NCBI GenBank assembly: GCA_034189385.1
Contig: JAXHVD010000015.1
Coordinates: 1 to 64,000, forward strand
Length of the DNA: 64,000 bases
Reading direction: 5' to 3'
Source: Thermodesulfobacteriota bacterium
GTDB taxonomy: Bacteria > Desulfobacterota > Desulfobacteria > Desulfobacterales > C00003060
The translations under genes were made by a program, and so were the position numbers. Below, piece by piece: positions 8,726-14,196 of the stretch; within the stretch, counting starts at the first letter, position 1, and the number at the start of each line of letters is the position of its first letter. The notes under the pieces are model-generated. The model made no database searches, was not told where the DNA came from, and saw only the letters and a list, made by a program, of their open reading frames with translations.

Positions 8726-9574
8726 TCAGGAGACCGTCGCTGAGAGATCCTGAGGTTCGGAAACAATGTGGACGTCTCTCTGCGGGAAGGGGATCTGAAT
8801 CTTGCCTTCTCTTAAAGCCTTGTATACGGCGAGGTTCGCCTGATAAAGGGTCTGGAAGTACTTTTTTGTGGGGATCCAATAGCGCAGACCGATGTTGATG
8901 GCCGAGTCGCCAAATGCCTGTATTCCCACCTGAGGAGGCGGCTTTTTGGAGATCTCCTGAAACGCGCCAAGGGTCTCTCTTATGATCTTGATCGCTTCCT
9001 CTGGATCGCTATCATAACTCACCCCGATCACCTCCTCCACGATCTTCCTCTCTTCCGAGTTATGGAGAATCTCGCCCATGATATGCTTGTTGGGGACCGT
9101 AATCCTCACGCCGTCTTCATCGGTCAAGACCGTGGCTCCAAGTTTGACTTCTTCCACCACGCCGCTCACGCCGGCCACGGTGATCGTATTGCCCACCACA
9201 AAGGGTCTGGTCACAATGATAGCCAGGCCTGCACCGTAGTTTGACAAGGGGCCTTGAATAGCAAAACTTGCCCCAAAAGCCATGGCAGCGAGGGCGGCCA
9301 CAAAGGGTGCGATGGTGATGCCGAATTTTCCCAGGGCAATAAGGATGGCAAACCCCAGGATAGTCCCCTTGACCCCACCAGCCGTAAACTTGGAAAGGGT
9401 GATGTCAAACTGCTTTTTCTCCAAAAGCTTGAAAAGAAAGGAGGAGACTGTCCTCGCAACTATCACTCCCACGATGAGCACGACGACAGCTCCCACAATT
9501 TGAAAACTGTAGTTCACAAAAAAGTCGATCACTCTGTTGACCACCGTCTCCATCGCCTTGATTTCTTCCTCCAT
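8726..9574 (-). CDS. mscS: Small-conductance mechanosensitive channel (MscS family)
   Basis: Three TMs, QGPLSNYGAGL...RPFVVG, VPN, IPFPQRDVH. Confidence 0.92.
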   Translation of the reverse strand: MEEEIKAMETVVNRVIDFFVNYSFQIVGAVVVLIVGVIVARTVSSFLFKLLEKKQFDITLSKFTAGGVKGTILGFAILIALGKFGITIAPFVAALAAMAFGASFAIQGPLSNYGAGLAIIVTRPFVVGNTITVAGVSGVVEEVKLGATVLTDEDGVRITVPNKHIMGEILHNSEERKIVEEVIGVSYDSDPEEAIKIIRETLGAFQEISKKPPPQVGIQAFGDSAINIGLRYWIPTKKYFQTLYQANLAVYKALREGKIQIPFPQRDVHIVSEPQDLSATVS

Positions 9575-9606
9575 GCCTCGTACCTCCCTTCCTTGGCAAA
9601 AGACTC

Positions 9607-11631
9607 TTAACGACCGAATGGCATCTGTTTGAACAGATCTTTGGCCTTGTCCTCCAGAGAGCCCGAATCACCCCCTTCCTTTGTCTGGCCGGGAAGGACC
9701 TTGAGGAGGTCGGAGGCCTGGGGAAGCCTCTCTTCAATGCCTTTTCTGATGATCCCTTCAAGGTCCGGACGGAACTTGGGGGCCGAAAAGGTTCCCGCCA
9801 CCACCACAGGCACCATGAATCCGCGACGCTCCTTGGTATCTCCCTGTGCTTTGAGAGTGGCCACGAATGTGGGCTCCACCCGAAAGTCGAGGGCCTCTGC
9901 AACCAGATCCGCCTTTCCCGCCACCGCCAGACGAAGGCCCGGCGAGGTAAGACTTGTTTGGGTTGTCTCCAGCACACCATCGGTCACAACAAATGGAACG
10001 TGGAGCTTTGAGAAATCCGTGCGTGGCTTCTTCTCCCCCGTCGGGGCTAGGCCAAAGGCAGCTTTCACATTCTGCGCCATTTGAGCCAGGTCGATTCCCA
10101 CCATGGCCCCGTCCTTGAAAAGCAAGTACCCTTTGCCGTTGAGCGTCCTCTTCATTGTCTCAGGATCATCCCCTTCCATTTGAAGGGCCAGCTCTGCATC
10201 GATGTCGCCTTCCAGAAAACCCTTTTTCAAAAGGTCTTGGAACAGGGGGGCCACCTGGATCTCTTTCCCCTGGAGTTCCATAGTGCTCCTTGGAACATCC
10301 TTTCGTAGGTCCAAGCCGGCTTTTGCAGTCACATGACCCTGGTATAGATCAAGGGTGACGGGATCCAGGTGGAACTGGCCGTCCTTTCCCAACACCCGGA
10401 CATACAGATCATGAAGCCTGGCCCCATGGGCTTTGACGCTTGCCGCGCGGATAGCGCCATCCAACACGATTTCGCGAAGGGGGCCGTAATTGGCTTCTTT
10501 CGGCTCCTGAGGGGGGCCGTTATGCTCCTTTTTCTCTTCTACGGCTCCATCCTCCCCTGAGGGCGGCAGGTATCGGTCCAGATCCATCTTGTCCAGACTG
10601 AGATCGAAAAAGACTTCAGGTTTCGAATAATCCTGGGCCCGGGCAGAAAAAATGACCCTTGACGCATCCACCTTCAAGACCCCGTCAGAGACCTCCGCCT
10701 CCTCCCGGTCTCCCATGAGCTTGACCTCCAGAGCTACGAGGTTCAAGGCCTGTGGGTCGGCAGTGGCGACGGGAAAACTTCTATTCAGGGCGGCCAAGAG
10801 TCTTCGAGGAGAAAACTCAGAAACCTGAAGGGCCAAGTCGAACCGCGGGCTGATTGCTGGATCTACTAAGTGGCCTTCAAGACGCATACGCAACTCCTTT
10901 GTCGCCTCCACGGCAAGGCTTAAGGGGATGGTCCCCTTGCCAATCTCTTTTCCCAAGGGCCCGACATTGCCTTCCACGGTGAAAGGGCACTGCATCGCTT
11001 TTCCAGTCATGGCTAGGTGAATAGGACGATCCAAGGAGACATCTTCGAGCCGGAGTGTGACATGGGAGATCTCTTTGCGATCCCCAGTGCCCTCATCGAT
11101 GTAAACAAGGGAGGCATCCTTGATGGCGCATTCCGCCACGGCCAGGGACTGGATAGGAAGGCCTTCAAGCAGTCCCTTTTCGGCCCCTCTTTCTTCTTCC
11201 CCCTCCTCTTCACTGGCTACTTGATCGGAGGTTCTTCCCATTCCATCCCAGTTCCCCTGGCCGGTCACGCTTCTTTCAACGACTATCCGCGGGTTTTCCA
11301 ATACGAAGCGTTTGACTTGAATGTCCCTGGAAAGGAGAGGCAGAAGTTTCACCCTAACCTCGAAGGAACGGACACTCAGACAATCCTTCTCGGTAAAACC
11401 TGGCGGGTTTGCCAGGTGGAGATCTGAAAGGGCCAAACCCACCCAAGGAAAGAGGGAAAACTGGAGCCTGCCGCCTATGGTCAATGGACGTCCTGTGGCC
11501 TCTGAGGCCCACCGCTCGATGTGCGGCTTGTATTTTTGAACGTCTATGAACCTCGGCACAATGACCAGCGCTGCCACAACCAGGAGGAAAAGCCCGACTC
11601 CCAAAATCAATATCCATTTCACGGCCTTCAT
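9607..11631 (-). CDS. AsmA family protein
   Basis: N-terminal TM, ATGRPLTIGG...SLFPW, LLPLLS, NW motif; beta-rich C-terminus with GTFSAPKFRPD. Confidence 0.9.
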   Translation of the reverse strand: MKAVKWILILGVGLFLLVVAALVIVPRFIDVQKYKPHIERWASEATGRPLTIGGRLQFSLFPWVGLALSDLHLANPPGFTEKDCLSVRSFEVRVKLLPLLSRDIQVKRFVLENPRIVVERSVTGQGNWDGMGRTSDQVASEEEGEEERGAEKGLLEGLPIQSLAVAECAIKDASLVYIDEGTGDRKEISHVTLRLEDVSLDRPIHLAMTGKAMQCPFTVEGNVGPLGKEIGKGTIPLSLAVEATKELRMRLEGHLVDPAISPRFDLALQVSEFSPRRLLAALNRSFPVATADPQALNLVALEVKLMGDREEAEVSDGVLKVDASRVIFSARAQDYSKPEVFFDLSLDKMDLDRYLPPSGEDGAVEEKKEHNGPPQEPKEANYGPLREIVLDGAIRAASVKAHGARLHDLYVRVLGKDGQFHLDPVTLDLYQGHVTAKAGLDLRKDVPRSTMELQGKEIQVAPLFQDLLKKGFLEGDIDAELALQMEGDDPETMKRTLNGKGYLLFKDGAMVGIDLAQMAQNVKAAFGLAPTGEKKPRTDFSKLHVPFVVTDGVLETTQTSLTSPGLRLAVAGKADLVAEALDFRVEPTFVATLKAQGDTKERRGFMVPVVVAGTFSAPKFRPDLEGIIRKGIEERLPQASDLLKVLPGQTKEGGDSGSLEDKAKDLFKQMPFGR

Positions 11632-12467
11632 GATCCATCTCCTTGTGACTGCTCCGCCTCGGCAGGTATCATGTGTACCACCTGTTGCGGGAAAGGTATT
11701 TCAATGCCGCTCTCATCAAAGGCCTCTTTGATCTTGCGGGTAAGATCAAATCTTACGGCCCAATAATCTGCCGCCTTTACCCAAGGGCGGACCACGAAAT
11801 TCACACTGGAATCGGCAAGCTCGGACACGGCAATCTGAGGGGCGGGGTCAGAGAGTATTCGGGGATCCTCATTGATGATGCGGGTCATGACGTCGTGGGC
11901 CTTTTGGATGTCAGAATCATAGCCAATGCCCATGACAAGGTCCACTCTTCGGGTGTCAAAGCCTGAGACGTTCTTGATGACATCTCCAAAGATCTTTCCG
12001 TTGGGGACCATGATCTTGATGTTGTCAGGAGTGGCAAGGACGGTAGTGAACAGCTGGACATCCTTCACACTGCCGGCTACGCCTGCTGCCTCAATGAAAT
12101 CGCCTACCCTGTAGGGCCGGAGTACAAGGATCAGTACGCCGGCCGCAAAATTGGCCAAAGATCCCTGGAGGGCAAAACCCACAGCAAAGCCGGCCGCACC
12201 AAGAACGGCCACAAAGGACGCCGTTTGAATGCCAAACTTCGCCAATGCGGCGAGCACCGCAAAGGTCAAAATGAGGATAAAGGTCAAACTGCCGACAAAA
12301 GAAACGACCGAGGGCTCGGTCTTGGCCCTTTCCAATATCCTCTTCACGATCTTACGTCCAAGGCCCGCAGCAACACGACCGACGATGAGAATGACGATGG
12401 CACCAACAGCTTTCAAGCCATACGTGGTCACGAAGATTACCATTTGGTCAATGACAGCACTGTTCAT
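11628..12467 (-). CDS. mscS: Small-conductance mechanosensitive channel (MscS family)
   Basis: GFALQGSLANFAAG...RPYRVGDFI, IPFPQ; start placed at MNSAV after GGAGG. Confidence 0.94.
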   Translation of the reverse strand: MNSAVIDQMVIFVTTYGLKAVGAIVILIVGRVAAGLGRKIVKRILERAKTEPSVVSFVGSLTFILILTFAVLAALAKFGIQTASFVAVLGAAGFAVGFALQGSLANFAAGVLILVLRPYRVGDFIEAAGVAGSVKDVQLFTTVLATPDNIKIMVPNGKIFGDVIKNVSGFDTRRVDLVMGIGYDSDIQKAHDVMTRIINEDPRILSDPAPQIAVSELADSSVNFVVRPWVKAADYWAVRFDLTRKIKEAFDESGIEIPFPQQVVHMIPAEAEQSQGDGS

Positions 12468-12663
12468 GATCTCCTCCCTTCCGGTCCTTTCAGCTTTTGG
12501 TAAAGGCAAATCCAGGGAAAGCTGGCCTTGATAGGCTCACCTTTCAGGCCCCTCCGATCGCTTGACTGCCAAAATGCCCGTCAAGCAAGCTCTATTTCTT
12601 TATCGCCATTGGCGATGAGTAGATGACCCTGGCCACTACTTCTCGCAAAACCGATAGAAGGAA

Positions 12664-13086
12664 TCACTTCATAAGCATGTGATAGGCCTGCTGAATGGCC
12701 ACGAACTTCTTATGGGCCAGCTCCTGAAACTCCCTGCCCAGGTGCTGGACCTTGTCAGGATGATATTGGGCAACAAGTCTCTTATAGGCTGCTTTGATGT
12801 CTGCCTCGGAGGCACCCTTTTCAACGCCCAGTATCTTATAAGGGTCGCCATTCTCAAAAGGCTCTTCCTTGGCTGCACCACCGGCACCAGAGGGTCTTTG
12901 CCCGCCGCTGGCAGGCCTCGGGCCGCTCCCGACTTGATAGGCCCTTCTGAGTCGTGCCGCCCACCACCATGCCAGGGCCAGCACACCAAGGTCATCCAGC
13001 CATCCAGGACCGATCAAGAGGTCGGGGATCAAATCATGGGGGAAGATAAAGTACAAAAGGGCTACAATCCAAGGTAGATACTTCAT
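12664..13086 (-). CDS. DUF1232/YkvA-like membrane segment fused to a J-domain
   Basis: [11 protein letters not shown]...GWLDDL N-terminus; C-terminal DPYKILGV...YHPDK J-domain. Confidence 0.85.
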
Positions 13087-13166
13087 GATTACGGCATCCG
13101 AGGTGTCTCACAGGTGTCATCGAGGACAAAAGGGGTTGCAAGGTCTGCCTCGATGTCTAATAATAT

Positions 13167-13369
13167 GGTAACGTTCAAAAGTGTTGACTTGCTGGATTTC
13201 TGGACAACCAACCTCGAGATAGGAATAATCGCTTATCTTCGGCATCCAATGCCTTTAGGTAGCCTATGCCATTTGTGTAGATGGCAATGGCTGTATGCCT
13301 GCGTTCAGCGATCATCCCTATCTCTTTAACTGCTTGCGAAGGCCTTTGCCTCAACTTTTGAACGTTACC
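13167..13369. mobile_element. 203-bp MITE with 16-bp perfect TIRs and 8-bp target-site duplication
   Basis: GGTAACGTTCAAAAGT (13167-13182) and ACTTTTGAACGTTACC (13354-13369); AATAATAT at 13159-13166 and 13370-13377. Confidence 0.88.
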
Positions 13370-13450
13370 AATAATATAGTTACGTCTTTGAATCAAACCT
13401 TCTTTGGGTTTTCAAGTGGAGCGTAGTTGGCTGGCAACAAGGAGGGGCCC

Positions 13451-13666
13451 ATGCCGCTATACGAGTTTCGCTGTTCCAAGTGTGGCGCTGAGTTTGAGCA
13501 GATTGTTTTTTGCGCCGATAAGGAGCCTGTAACGTGTCCAACATGTGGGGCCTCTGATCCTGAACGATTGCTTTCCGTGTTTTCCTCGGGTAGGGTGTCC
13601 GGAGCTGGTGCGACCTCGGCAGCCTCTTCTTGCGCACCCTCAGGAAGCGGTTTCTCTTGAGCGTAA
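13451..13666 (+). CDS. FmdB-family zinc-ribbon protein, probably a selenoprotein ending ...SCAPSGSGFS-U-A (ends at 13660 if UGA is a stop)
   Basis: MPLYEFRCSKCG...CPTCG FmdB signature; TGA 13658-13660, then GCG TAA and a SECIS-like hairpin. Confidence 0.85.
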
Positions 13667-13671
13667 GTCAT

Positions 13672-13688
13672 TTCAGCCGTAGGCTGAA
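13672..13688 (+). promoter_or_regulatory. Candidate bacterial SECIS element 1
   Basis: TTCAGCC-GTA-GGCTGAA hairpin starting 12 nt after the UGA; loop GU at +19/+20. Confidence 0.65.
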
Positions 13689-13698
13689 GGAGAAAGGA

Positions 13699-13863
13699 AT
13701 GTCGGAAATACTCATTCTTCTGGGAATTTTTGTTGTGTGGATCCTGCTTCAGGTTTACATCCTGCCCAAGTTCGGCATATCTACGTGACTCAAGAACGTC
13801 TGCCCGGTGGGCGACCAGACAAGACACGTACAAGAAAGGCAACTGCCAGAGCCCCCAAAATAA
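13699..13863 (+). CDS. Small single-pass membrane selenoprotein candidate, 54 aa: MSEILILLGIFVVWILLQVYILPKFGIST-U-LKNVCPVGDQTRHVQERQLPEPPK
   Basis: RBS AAGGAGAAAGGA, ATG 13699, TM helix, in-frame TGA 13786-13788, Cys five residues later, SECIS-like hairpin, TAA 13861-13863; absent from the ORF track. Confidence 0.72.
13798..13815 (+). promoter_or_regulatory. Candidate bacterial SECIS element 2
   Basis: GTC-(bulged T)-GCCC-GGT-GGGC-GAC; bulged U plus loop GU at +19/+20, like the E. coli fdhF upper stem. Confidence 0.7.
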
Positions 13864-14077
13864 GAGCCCCTCTTGTTGACAACGACTCTTCTCATCACGT
13901 TGTCCGCAGGGCGGTCATGAATCTCACCCAAATCCATTACCATTTCTCTCAAGCTGTTGGCAAAGCGCTTGCGCCTCTCCTGCTTCAGGTAATCTGATAG
14001 CTTTGCTCCTTGCTATCGCCCAAAACGGCCCAAAGCGGGCCGTCGCCGCCCAGCTCCACGCCCTTCCGGGCGCACAC

Positions 14078-14111
14078 AAAAAGGGGGTACGACATGTGTC
14101 GTACCCCCTTT
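14078..14111. terminator. Intrinsic terminator downstream of tRNA-Val, possibly bidirectional
   Basis: AAGGGGGTACGACA-TG-TGTCGTACCCCCTT perfect inverted repeat flanked by A/T runs. Confidence 0.8.
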
Positions 14112-14120
14112 ATATCAGAG

Positions 14121-14196
14121 TGGTAGGCGGTCGCGGATTCGAACCGCGGACTTCCACCGTGTGAGGATGGCACTCTCACCGCTGAGTTAACCGCCC
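14121..14196 (-). tRNA. tRNA-Val(CAC)
   Basis: GGGCGGTTAACTCAGCGG...CCATC-CT-CAC-AC-GGTGG...GGTTCGAATCC...CCGCCTACCA cloverleaf with encoded CCA. Confidence 0.96.

Follow-up and report, generated by a model that had tools for sequence, protein, structure and literature searches.

Two small genes lie side by side on the forward strand of the stretch of DNA analysed here (the window; 64 000 nucleotides), each carrying an in-frame TGA followed by a short open tail and a TAA (Table 1). The reading frames and coordinates agreed with those given in an initial annotation of the window. A single GCG codon separates the TGA of gene 1 (U70) from the stop, while in gene 2 the TGA (U30) is followed by 24 open codons, with C35 among them.

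Gene 1 had been called an FmdB-type zinc ribbon, and it scored 64.3 bits against TIGR02605 (cut-off 31.3) and 55.1 against PF09723 (cut-off 34.4). Its ribbon cysteines C8/C11/C29/C32 are followed by a Ser/Gly-rich linker and the ending C61-x8-U70-A71-COOH; C61 is the cysteine nearest to U70 (C-x8-U), and the protein ends in GFS-U-A. Gene 2, described at first as a tiny membrane U-x4-C protein, indeed reads in this order: a predicted hydrophobic transmembrane helix, LPKFGIST, U30-x4-C35 and a variable charged tail. AF2 modelled one helix (residues 2-30, pLDDT 92 over residues 1-20) and a low-confidence tail. Over 110 gene-2 loci the mean best hydropathy was 2.3, with about five K/R residues after the helix; hydropathy and positive-inside charge suggest that the tail is cytoplasmic. 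A lipoprotein or cleavable signal peptide was rejected by inspection (Thr at -1, no fixed residue at -2, and a site 29 residues into the peptide).

Table 1. Features of the two-gene locus (window coordinates).
Feature	Position	Strand	Basis
Shine-Dalgarno-like AGGAGG ahead of gene 1	13440..13445	+	sequence
Gene 1, 71-aa FmdB-family zinc ribbon (ATG 13451, TAA 13664-13666)	13451..13666	+	TIGR02605, PF09723, translation, alignment
Gene 1 putative Sec codon TGA (U70, penultimate residue)	13658..13660	+	TGA in 46/46 loci and in all of at least 116 relatives
SECIS 1, entirely in the gene 1 3' UTR	13668..13691	+	fold and covariation
SECIS 1 core stem	13671-13689	+	fold
SECIS 1 loop GUA	13679-13681	+	fold
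Shine-Dalgarno-like AAGGAG of gene 2	13687..13692	+	first three bases within the SECIS 1 3' arm
Gene 2, 54-aa predicted single-pass membrane peptide (ATG 13699, TAA 13861-13863)	13699..13863	+	translation, AF2, hydropathy
Gene 2 putative Sec codon TGA (U30)	13786..13788	+	TGA in 84/84 and 110/110 loci; Cys forms
SECIS 2, within the coding region, fdhF-like, bulged U13801, loop GGU	13798..13815	+	fold; relatives
Divergent DUF1232 + DnaJ-domain gene	12664..13086	-	Pfam; syntenic only in close relatives
Convergent tRNA-Val(CAC), closing the region	14121..14196	-	ARAGORN

The divergent DUF1232-DnaJ gene is conserved beside the pair in close-relative loci and is not a common neighbour phylum-wide. 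Just past it, at 8726-12509 on the reverse strand, an AsmA-like gene stands between two genes for MscS-family channels. We found no conserved ORF in the flanks 13090-13450 and 13864-14120 and no σ54-type promoter upstream (0 of 119 and 0 of 110 loci); upstream σ70-like sites were weak (4 found versus 1.0 expected). The sole return from the ESM Atlas was a cluster labelled 'hypothetical protein'.

Decoding of the two UGA codons

The initial annotation read both UGAs as selenocysteine (Sec) codons and looked to the genome for selA, selB, selC and selD. All four (selC as tRNA-Sec) were found over cut-off in the source genome. Its selD gene (G000:C29:10803-11726, +; L004) itself contains one in-frame TGA, as expected for a Sec form. 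Since selA is near-universal in the phylum (379 of 401 genomes), there is little contrast by which to judge a restriction to Sec-using genomes. Eight gene-2 genomes had no selA match; seven of these have selB over cut-off, and tRNA-Sec was present in all five checked. In the eighth, G422, which is 85% complete, neither selA nor selB was found. A Planctomycetota genome with a Cys (TGC) form of gene 2 gave no selA match, and selA is present in four of the five other genomes that carry Cys forms of either gene.

We determined the codon at both sites in relatives. In a first locus set, each of the 46 FmdB genes that precede gene 2 ends in GFS-TGA. An independent scan for an FmdB start, GF[ST] and TRR gave at least 120 matches, 116 in frame and four out of frame; TGA occupied the stop position in all of the at least 116 in-frame relatives, with no TAA, TAG or TGG. 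The residue after U was Ala in 91 and Gly in 23 of these, and one to three codons after the Sec TGA came a mixed true stop (TGA 60, TAA 32, TAG 24). Among the matches listed, a Cys lies 5-13 residues before U in 115 of 116 forms, mostly 7-9 before. For gene 2, a first set was collected by genome scan (71 loci) and by a search of relatives (17 of 41 genomes), and TGA stood at the site in 84 of 84 loci, a count that includes the window itself and some duplicates. A profile built from 34 of these loci matched 170 of 401 genomes drawn across the phylum, with TGA in each of the 150 matches listed; in the 110 of 175 profile matches that we examined, the site was TGA in all 110. A draw of Planctomycetota yielded gene 2 in 18 of 201 genomes, 17 with TGA and one with TGC. 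The mixed stop codons that the initial annotation had named as a sign against recoding were thus seen at neither site, and both sequence and hairpin beyond the UGA are kept in relatives.

Cys-for-Sec homologues are plentiful for gene 2 and rare for gene 1. The gene-2 profile gave 788 hits in a protein library; in the best 150, the site residue was Cys in 56, a stop in 60, Trp in 26 and another residue in six, and two were not parsed. We take the Trp forms to be gene-caller read-through of TGA as W and not true Trp. A scan for Cys versions of gene 1 gave eight pattern matches, three in frame: two are clean forms (GFS-C-xx-stop; L221 and L222), the third has a longer Cys-rich tail, and none of the three has the hairpin.

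Each TGA is followed by a hairpin that places G-U in its loop at +19/+20 (13679-80 and 13807-08; loops GUA and GGU), and folding bore out this feature of the initial annotation. In the bacterial SECIS (bSECIS) model as given in the accessible text of PMC13188914, the loop has 3-9 nt with G at loop position 1-2, lies 16-37 nt from the UGA and has an MFE of ≤ -7.5. Both hairpins fit it, with loops starting at +19 and +18 and energies of -10.4 and -8.9 kcal/mol. Hairpin 1 (25 nt) stands out from its shuffles (z -4.3, 0 of 200 as good; z -1.54 on the 48-nt piece). Hairpin 2 (26 nt, with a bulged U as in fdhF) gave z -0.92 and was matched by 34 of 200 shuffles; by itself it is therefore not beyond chance. 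Both TGAs pass a bSECIS-like filter that was devised after the two hairpins were known, which favours them, against a window background of 27 of 2434 TGAs; at the genome's ends of open stretches of at least 150 aa it passed 7 of 1160 TAA, 17 of 1571 TAG and 33 of 2021 TGA codons. The same filter passes 86 of the 116 gene-1 TGAs among the matches listed and 72 of 110 gene-2 TGAs.

SECIS 1 falls wholly after the gene 1 TAA and is thus non-coding. In 30 aligned related sequences 91.4% of its cells are paired and six of seven pairs show two-sided changes; none of 500 shuffles scored as high, and slid controls gave 30-43%. A hairpin occurs at the place of SECIS 2 in most relatives, in two registers, and RNAalifold found no consensus there. 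Each register pairs only 63-67% of cells, no better than one slid control (69.8%). Support from covariation is therefore confined to SECIS 1, whose 3' arm also pairs part of the gene-2 Shine-Dalgarno sequence; in that sequence, bases 13687-13689 have predicted unpaired probabilities of 0.01, 0.03 and 0.14. This tight spacing (128-129 nt between the TGAs) was seen in 16 of 46 pair loci, all close relatives; the overlap is lineage-limited.

Could the UGAs be ordinary stops, yielding a 69-aa zinc ribbon and a 29-aa peptide? Databases annotate them so: the best 120 FmdB proteins all stop at the Sec site, with Cys there in none, as do the 60 stop forms in the best 150 of 788 gene-2 hits. Hairpin 2 alone is unremarkable, and G422 lacks selA and selB matches. 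Against this stand the absence of TAA and TAG from the at least 116 gene-1 and 110 gene-2 loci, the Sec/Cys pairs, the covarying non-coding hairpin and the conserved residue after U, and we consider plain termination very improbable. Some termination at UGA probably occurs in any case. Collectively, the Sec machinery, the invariance of TGA, the Sec/Cys pairs, the covarying SECIS 1 and the residue after U strongly support recoding of both genes, and both UGAs are almost certainly Sec codons, decoded by SelB and tRNA-Sec in the standard bacterial way.

Two protein families and their closest known relatives

All 23 members of the gene-1 subfamily compared match the FmdB model, with C8, C11, C29 and C32 invariant. 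The record labels of gene-1 relatives, as deposited, include Desulfobacterota, Acidobacteriota, Chloroflexota, Zixiibacteriota, KSB1 and others (among the matches listed). Records of cultured Desulforhopalus, Desulfogranum, Thermodesulfobacterium and Thermodesulfatator also carry the gene-1 tail. An FmdB selenoprotein is already catalogued: in GOS reads described in the accessible text of PMC2398784, U replaces Cys in the first CxxC (UxxU/CxxU; two reads). It also appears in Table 1 of PMC13188914, in its accessible part, and has a representative in deep-Sep Table S1. It shares with gene 1 the TIGR02605 zinc ribbon and UGA/bSECIS decoding. In contrast, gene 1 keeps the four ribbon cysteines, has its Sec 2-4 residues from the C-terminus and carries its SECIS in the 3' UTR; by the rule in the accessible text of PMC13188914, the different Sec position makes it a distinct subfamily. 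The C-terminal-Sec form was not found in the deep-Sep supplements, NCBIfam or a wider search of the accessible literature. Since the catalogued FmdB selenoprotein has its U in a CxxC motif, gene 1 looks like an apparently uncatalogued C-terminal-Sec subfamily of FmdB spanning multiple phyla.

Gene 1 further resembles Ruc, which we take to be a member of TIGR02605. Ruc (Rv0991c) is a redox-regulated chaperone that binds one Zn and whose chaperone activity needs oxidation and a disordered tail; its family was reported in 86% of deltaproteobacterial genomes (PMC7448276, accessible text). The two proteins share Cys 8, 11, 29 and 32 (CxxC-x17-CxxC) and a variable hydrophilic tail. Unlike gene 1, Ruc has no Sec, and the accessible text describes no conserved GF[ST]-U end for it. 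The same text places Ruc beside chaperone genes, whereas most of the gene-1 subfamily appears to lie elsewhere; the source genome and close relatives have the divergent DnaJ-domain gene. Chaperone genes were not among the common neighbours of the pair genes within the short flanks searched.

As far as the accessible texts of bioRxiv 10.1101/2022.07.06.499078 and PMC13188914 go, SaoC, KCU-star and UXX-star have Sec at or near the C-terminus, and SaoC and KCU-star set a precedent for a SECIS beyond the true stop. Like gene 1, these proteins have the SECIS past the true stop and are truncated in databases. Their folds differ (adjacent CU or Trx-like), whereas the gene-1 Cys lies mostly 7-9 residues before U, in the tail of a zinc ribbon. 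The context GF[S/T/G]-U-[G/A] (window 13647-13663) recurs in unrelated deep-Sep selenoproteins, the radical SAM family TIGR04167 and a HesB-like protein, and is perhaps a shared recognition or chemistry motif. The 'FmdB' in the accessible text of PMC11227280 is formylmethanofuran dehydrogenase and was set aside as irrelevant.

The source genome has nine FmdB-like matches. One is a second GFS-U-A zinc ribbon (L205; G000:C63:25906-26121, -) with the same SECIS-type hairpin and no gene 2 beside it. Its cluster holds a CDF transporter with a Nitro_FeMo-Co domain, a DUF5320 gene and another FmdB gene with a Cys-rich tail, and is a NifB-NifX, metal-type cluster. As judged from ORF translations, a short paralogue (L210; G000:C5:39410-39595, -) comes immediately after groES/groEL and an Hsp20-like gene, a setting that has been reported for Ruc; no SECIS-like hairpin accompanies the TGA of L210. 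A further paralogue with a Cys-rich tail (L207; G000:C63:108083-108283, -) lies about 3 kb downstream of selA on the same strand and precedes hemC-like and cobA/hemD-like genes.

Gene 2, including 42 of its Cys forms, matched no Pfam or NCBIfam 20.0 family, and a single-sequence homologue search with gene 2 gave one match, a 29-aa truncated form. The Cys forms gave weak single-member matches to ATP synthase b' and others (E 0.02-0.07). The next Cys after U in the 110 Sec forms is at +5 in 85, at +6 in 16 and at +10 in one, and is absent within 10 residues in eight. A second Cys at +5/+6 is kept in Sec and Cys forms alike (101 of 110 versus 54 of 56) and thus does not simply reflect SECIS constraint. 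Several Acidobacteriota forms also have no Cys within 10 residues; six loci, mostly with Acidobacteriota labels (L233, L242, L271, L302, L303 and L345), read U-A-V/N-P without the +5 Cys and keep an FmdB partner downstream. An ECF sigma factor gene begins within gene 2 in one Desulfobacterales group (L011, L015, L019, L021, L026, L031, L037, L074 and L076-L078; ~1628-2236, +), and planctomycete forms also adjoin ECF/zf-HC2 pairs.

Six sequences of the gene-2 family are printed in deep-Sep Data S1 as known predicted selenoproteins, under 'all known selenoprotein sequences' for the test genomes. By eye, these six sequences share with gene 2 a TM helix, LP[KR][LM]G[IV]xT, U, a Cys five residues on and a charged tail. 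We did not find the family in deep-Sep Table S1 or in the accessible text of the 2026 review PMC13188914 and the 2022 review PMC9312934, and met no account of its range, Cys forms, topology or connection with FmdB in the material consulted. On its sequence, then, gene 2 belongs to a previously predicted but neglected selenoprotein family. The description of the pair as an undescribed module accordingly did not hold for gene 2.

SELENOK and SELENOS of eukaryotes are likewise single-pass membrane proteins, with Sec in a disordered cytoplasmic tail. The likeness is an analogy only, with no homology expected; in gene 2 the Sec comes directly after the helix.

Adjacency, neighbourhoods and possible function

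Viewed from gene 2, a U-ending FmdB gene was the top neighbour, adjacent in 21 of 110 loci (9 of 52 families), and any FmdB gene lay near gene 2 in 23 of 110 loci versus 3 of 400 random windows. The higher proportion in the first set (46 of 84 loci) is inflated by close kin. Viewed from gene 1, gene 2 lay within 300-500 nt in 27 of 116 loci among the matches listed, a lower bound because the flanks were short. Both orders occur among these matches: gene 1 comes first in 11 pair loci, with Desulfobacterota/Deltaproteobacteria labels, and gene 2 in 16, with Acidobacteriota, KSB1, Krumholzibacteria, Cytophagia and Fibrobacteraceae labels. None of the 18 Planctomycetota gene-2 loci had an FmdB gene nearby. 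Conserved adjacency, named as a check in the initial annotation, was found across phyla, but at about one locus in five: the pair is recurrent over several phyla and in both gene orders, and it is facultative, not an obligate module. Its survival of rearrangement argues for shared regulation or function.

We surveyed the genes within ~1.5 kb of gene 2 at 110 loci (52 families) and in 400 random windows. Thiol/sulfur-redox genes were near 24 of 110 loci (11 of 52 families) versus 4 of 400 windows, a contrast inflated because the neighbour queries were drawn from the same loci, in which kin are not independent. Individual neighbours were ArsR (10 of 110), Trx (9), CcdA (6), Prx/TlpA (5), 4Fe-4S dicluster proteins (5), NikR (5) and ECF sigma factors (3). 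Rhodanese, TauE and other selenoproteins were also found beside the pair genes, and planctomycete Cys forms of gene 2 sit among rhodanese, MBL-rhodanese, TauE, SQR-like oxidoreductase, Trx and ECF/zf-HC2 genes. Neighbours of gene-1 relatives included PDO_seleno_TRX (5 loci), IscA/HesB-like (4) and DUF302 (7) genes; the commonest, a convergent FtsB-like gene (18 loci, one lineage), looks like plain synteny.

Because these neighbours comprise thioredoxin, peroxiredoxin/TlpA, CcdA, ArsR, rhodanese, TauE and other selenoproteins, we tentatively favour a role for both proteins, as small selenol/thiol redox elements, in the response of anaerobes to oxidative or reactive-sulfur stress, over metal binding, a dedicated complex, selenium buffering or coupling, and plain termination. 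The Sec would be first to react with peroxide, persulfide or polysulfide, the nearby Cys would resolve the oxidised Sec to a selenenylsulfide, and thioredoxin-type enzymes would re-reduce it. The membrane peptide, with its cytoplasmic Sec-x4-Cys, would act at the inner face of the membrane. The zinc ribbon would work in the cytoplasm through its flexible C-terminal arm (Cys...GFS-Sec-Ala), and from there oxidation might be relayed to the Zn-thiolates and turn on an activity like that of Ruc. Where adjacent, the two genes would be co-expressed without forming an obligate complex. The second Cys kept near the Sec in most members of both families and the Cys register shared with Ruc, which is oxidation-activated (PMC7448276, accessible text), speak for such a role. 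Against it, 86 of 110 gene-2 loci had none of the thiol/sulfur neighbours searched for, eight of 110 Sec forms and several Acidobacteriota forms lack a Cys within 10 residues, L205 sits in a metal-type cluster, chaperone genes are not common neighbours, most loci lack the pair, and Cys forms occur in selA genomes too (4 of 5).

The paralogue L205 also bears on a possible but less than likely role in metal binding or as a metallochaperone, with Sec and Cys as ligands of soft metals or metalloids (Hg, Cu, Cd, As, Ni, or an Fe-S/metal cofactor). The CDF transporter with its Nitro_FeMo-Co domain and the DUF5320 gene beside L205 would suit it, as would the Cys-rich tails of other FmdB paralogues in the source genome, the similar C..G.GFT-U-GG end of the radical SAM selenoprotein TIGR04167 (deep-Sep Table S1), and the ArsR and NikR neighbours of gene 2, with the reservation that an ArsR hit may be either a metal or a sulfur sensor. 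However, the Trx, Prx/TlpA, CcdA and rhodanese neighbours have no specific link to metals, and no metal-efflux gene was among the common gene-2 neighbours. It is doubtful that the two proteins form a dedicated two-component module, in which the membrane peptide recruits the zinc ribbon for Se-S or Se-Se exchange. The rank of U-ending FmdB as top gene-2 neighbour, the occurrence of gene 2 near 27 of 116 listed gene-1 relatives in both orders, and a YILPKFG motif conserved beyond the needs of an anchor are in keeping with such a module, but the partner is missing in about four-fifths of loci, including all 18 from Planctomycetota, and selenoprotein genes also cluster for shared regulation (PMC13188914, accessible text).

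Tiny size and the near-exclusive use of Sec by gene 1 (at least 116 TGA versus two clean Cys forms) would fit proteins that mainly buffer or sense selenium, and the three Shine-Dalgarno bases paired in SECIS 1 a variant in which, in the source genus, SECIS 1 also masks the ribosome-binding site of gene 2 and so ties its translation to Sec read-through. We regard this as improbable: abundant Cys forms of gene 2 mean that its function does not need selenium, and the overlap occurs in only 16 of 46 pair loci. Quite doubtful, too, is a widespread and overlooked selenium relay in anaerobes, in which the membrane Sec-x4-Cys peptide would sense oxidants or reactive sulfur at the inner membrane and oxidise a Ruc-like zinc ribbon via its Sec-tipped swinging tail, switching on chaperone activity or signalling as a bacterial counterpart of SELENOK/SELENOS, with the 3'-UTR SECIS gating partner translation in the source genus.

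While the recoding mechanism is ordinary, both families appear to be among the most widespread missed bacterial selenoproteins, and taking them into account would alter selenoproteome counts and thousands of annotations. In the FmdB/Ruc family, whose tails otherwise vary, gene 1 would provide a conserved chemical handle, and its coding-free bacterial SECIS elements would form a natural collection on which SelB recognition could be defined. Both predicted proteins are short enough for direct synthesis and assay.
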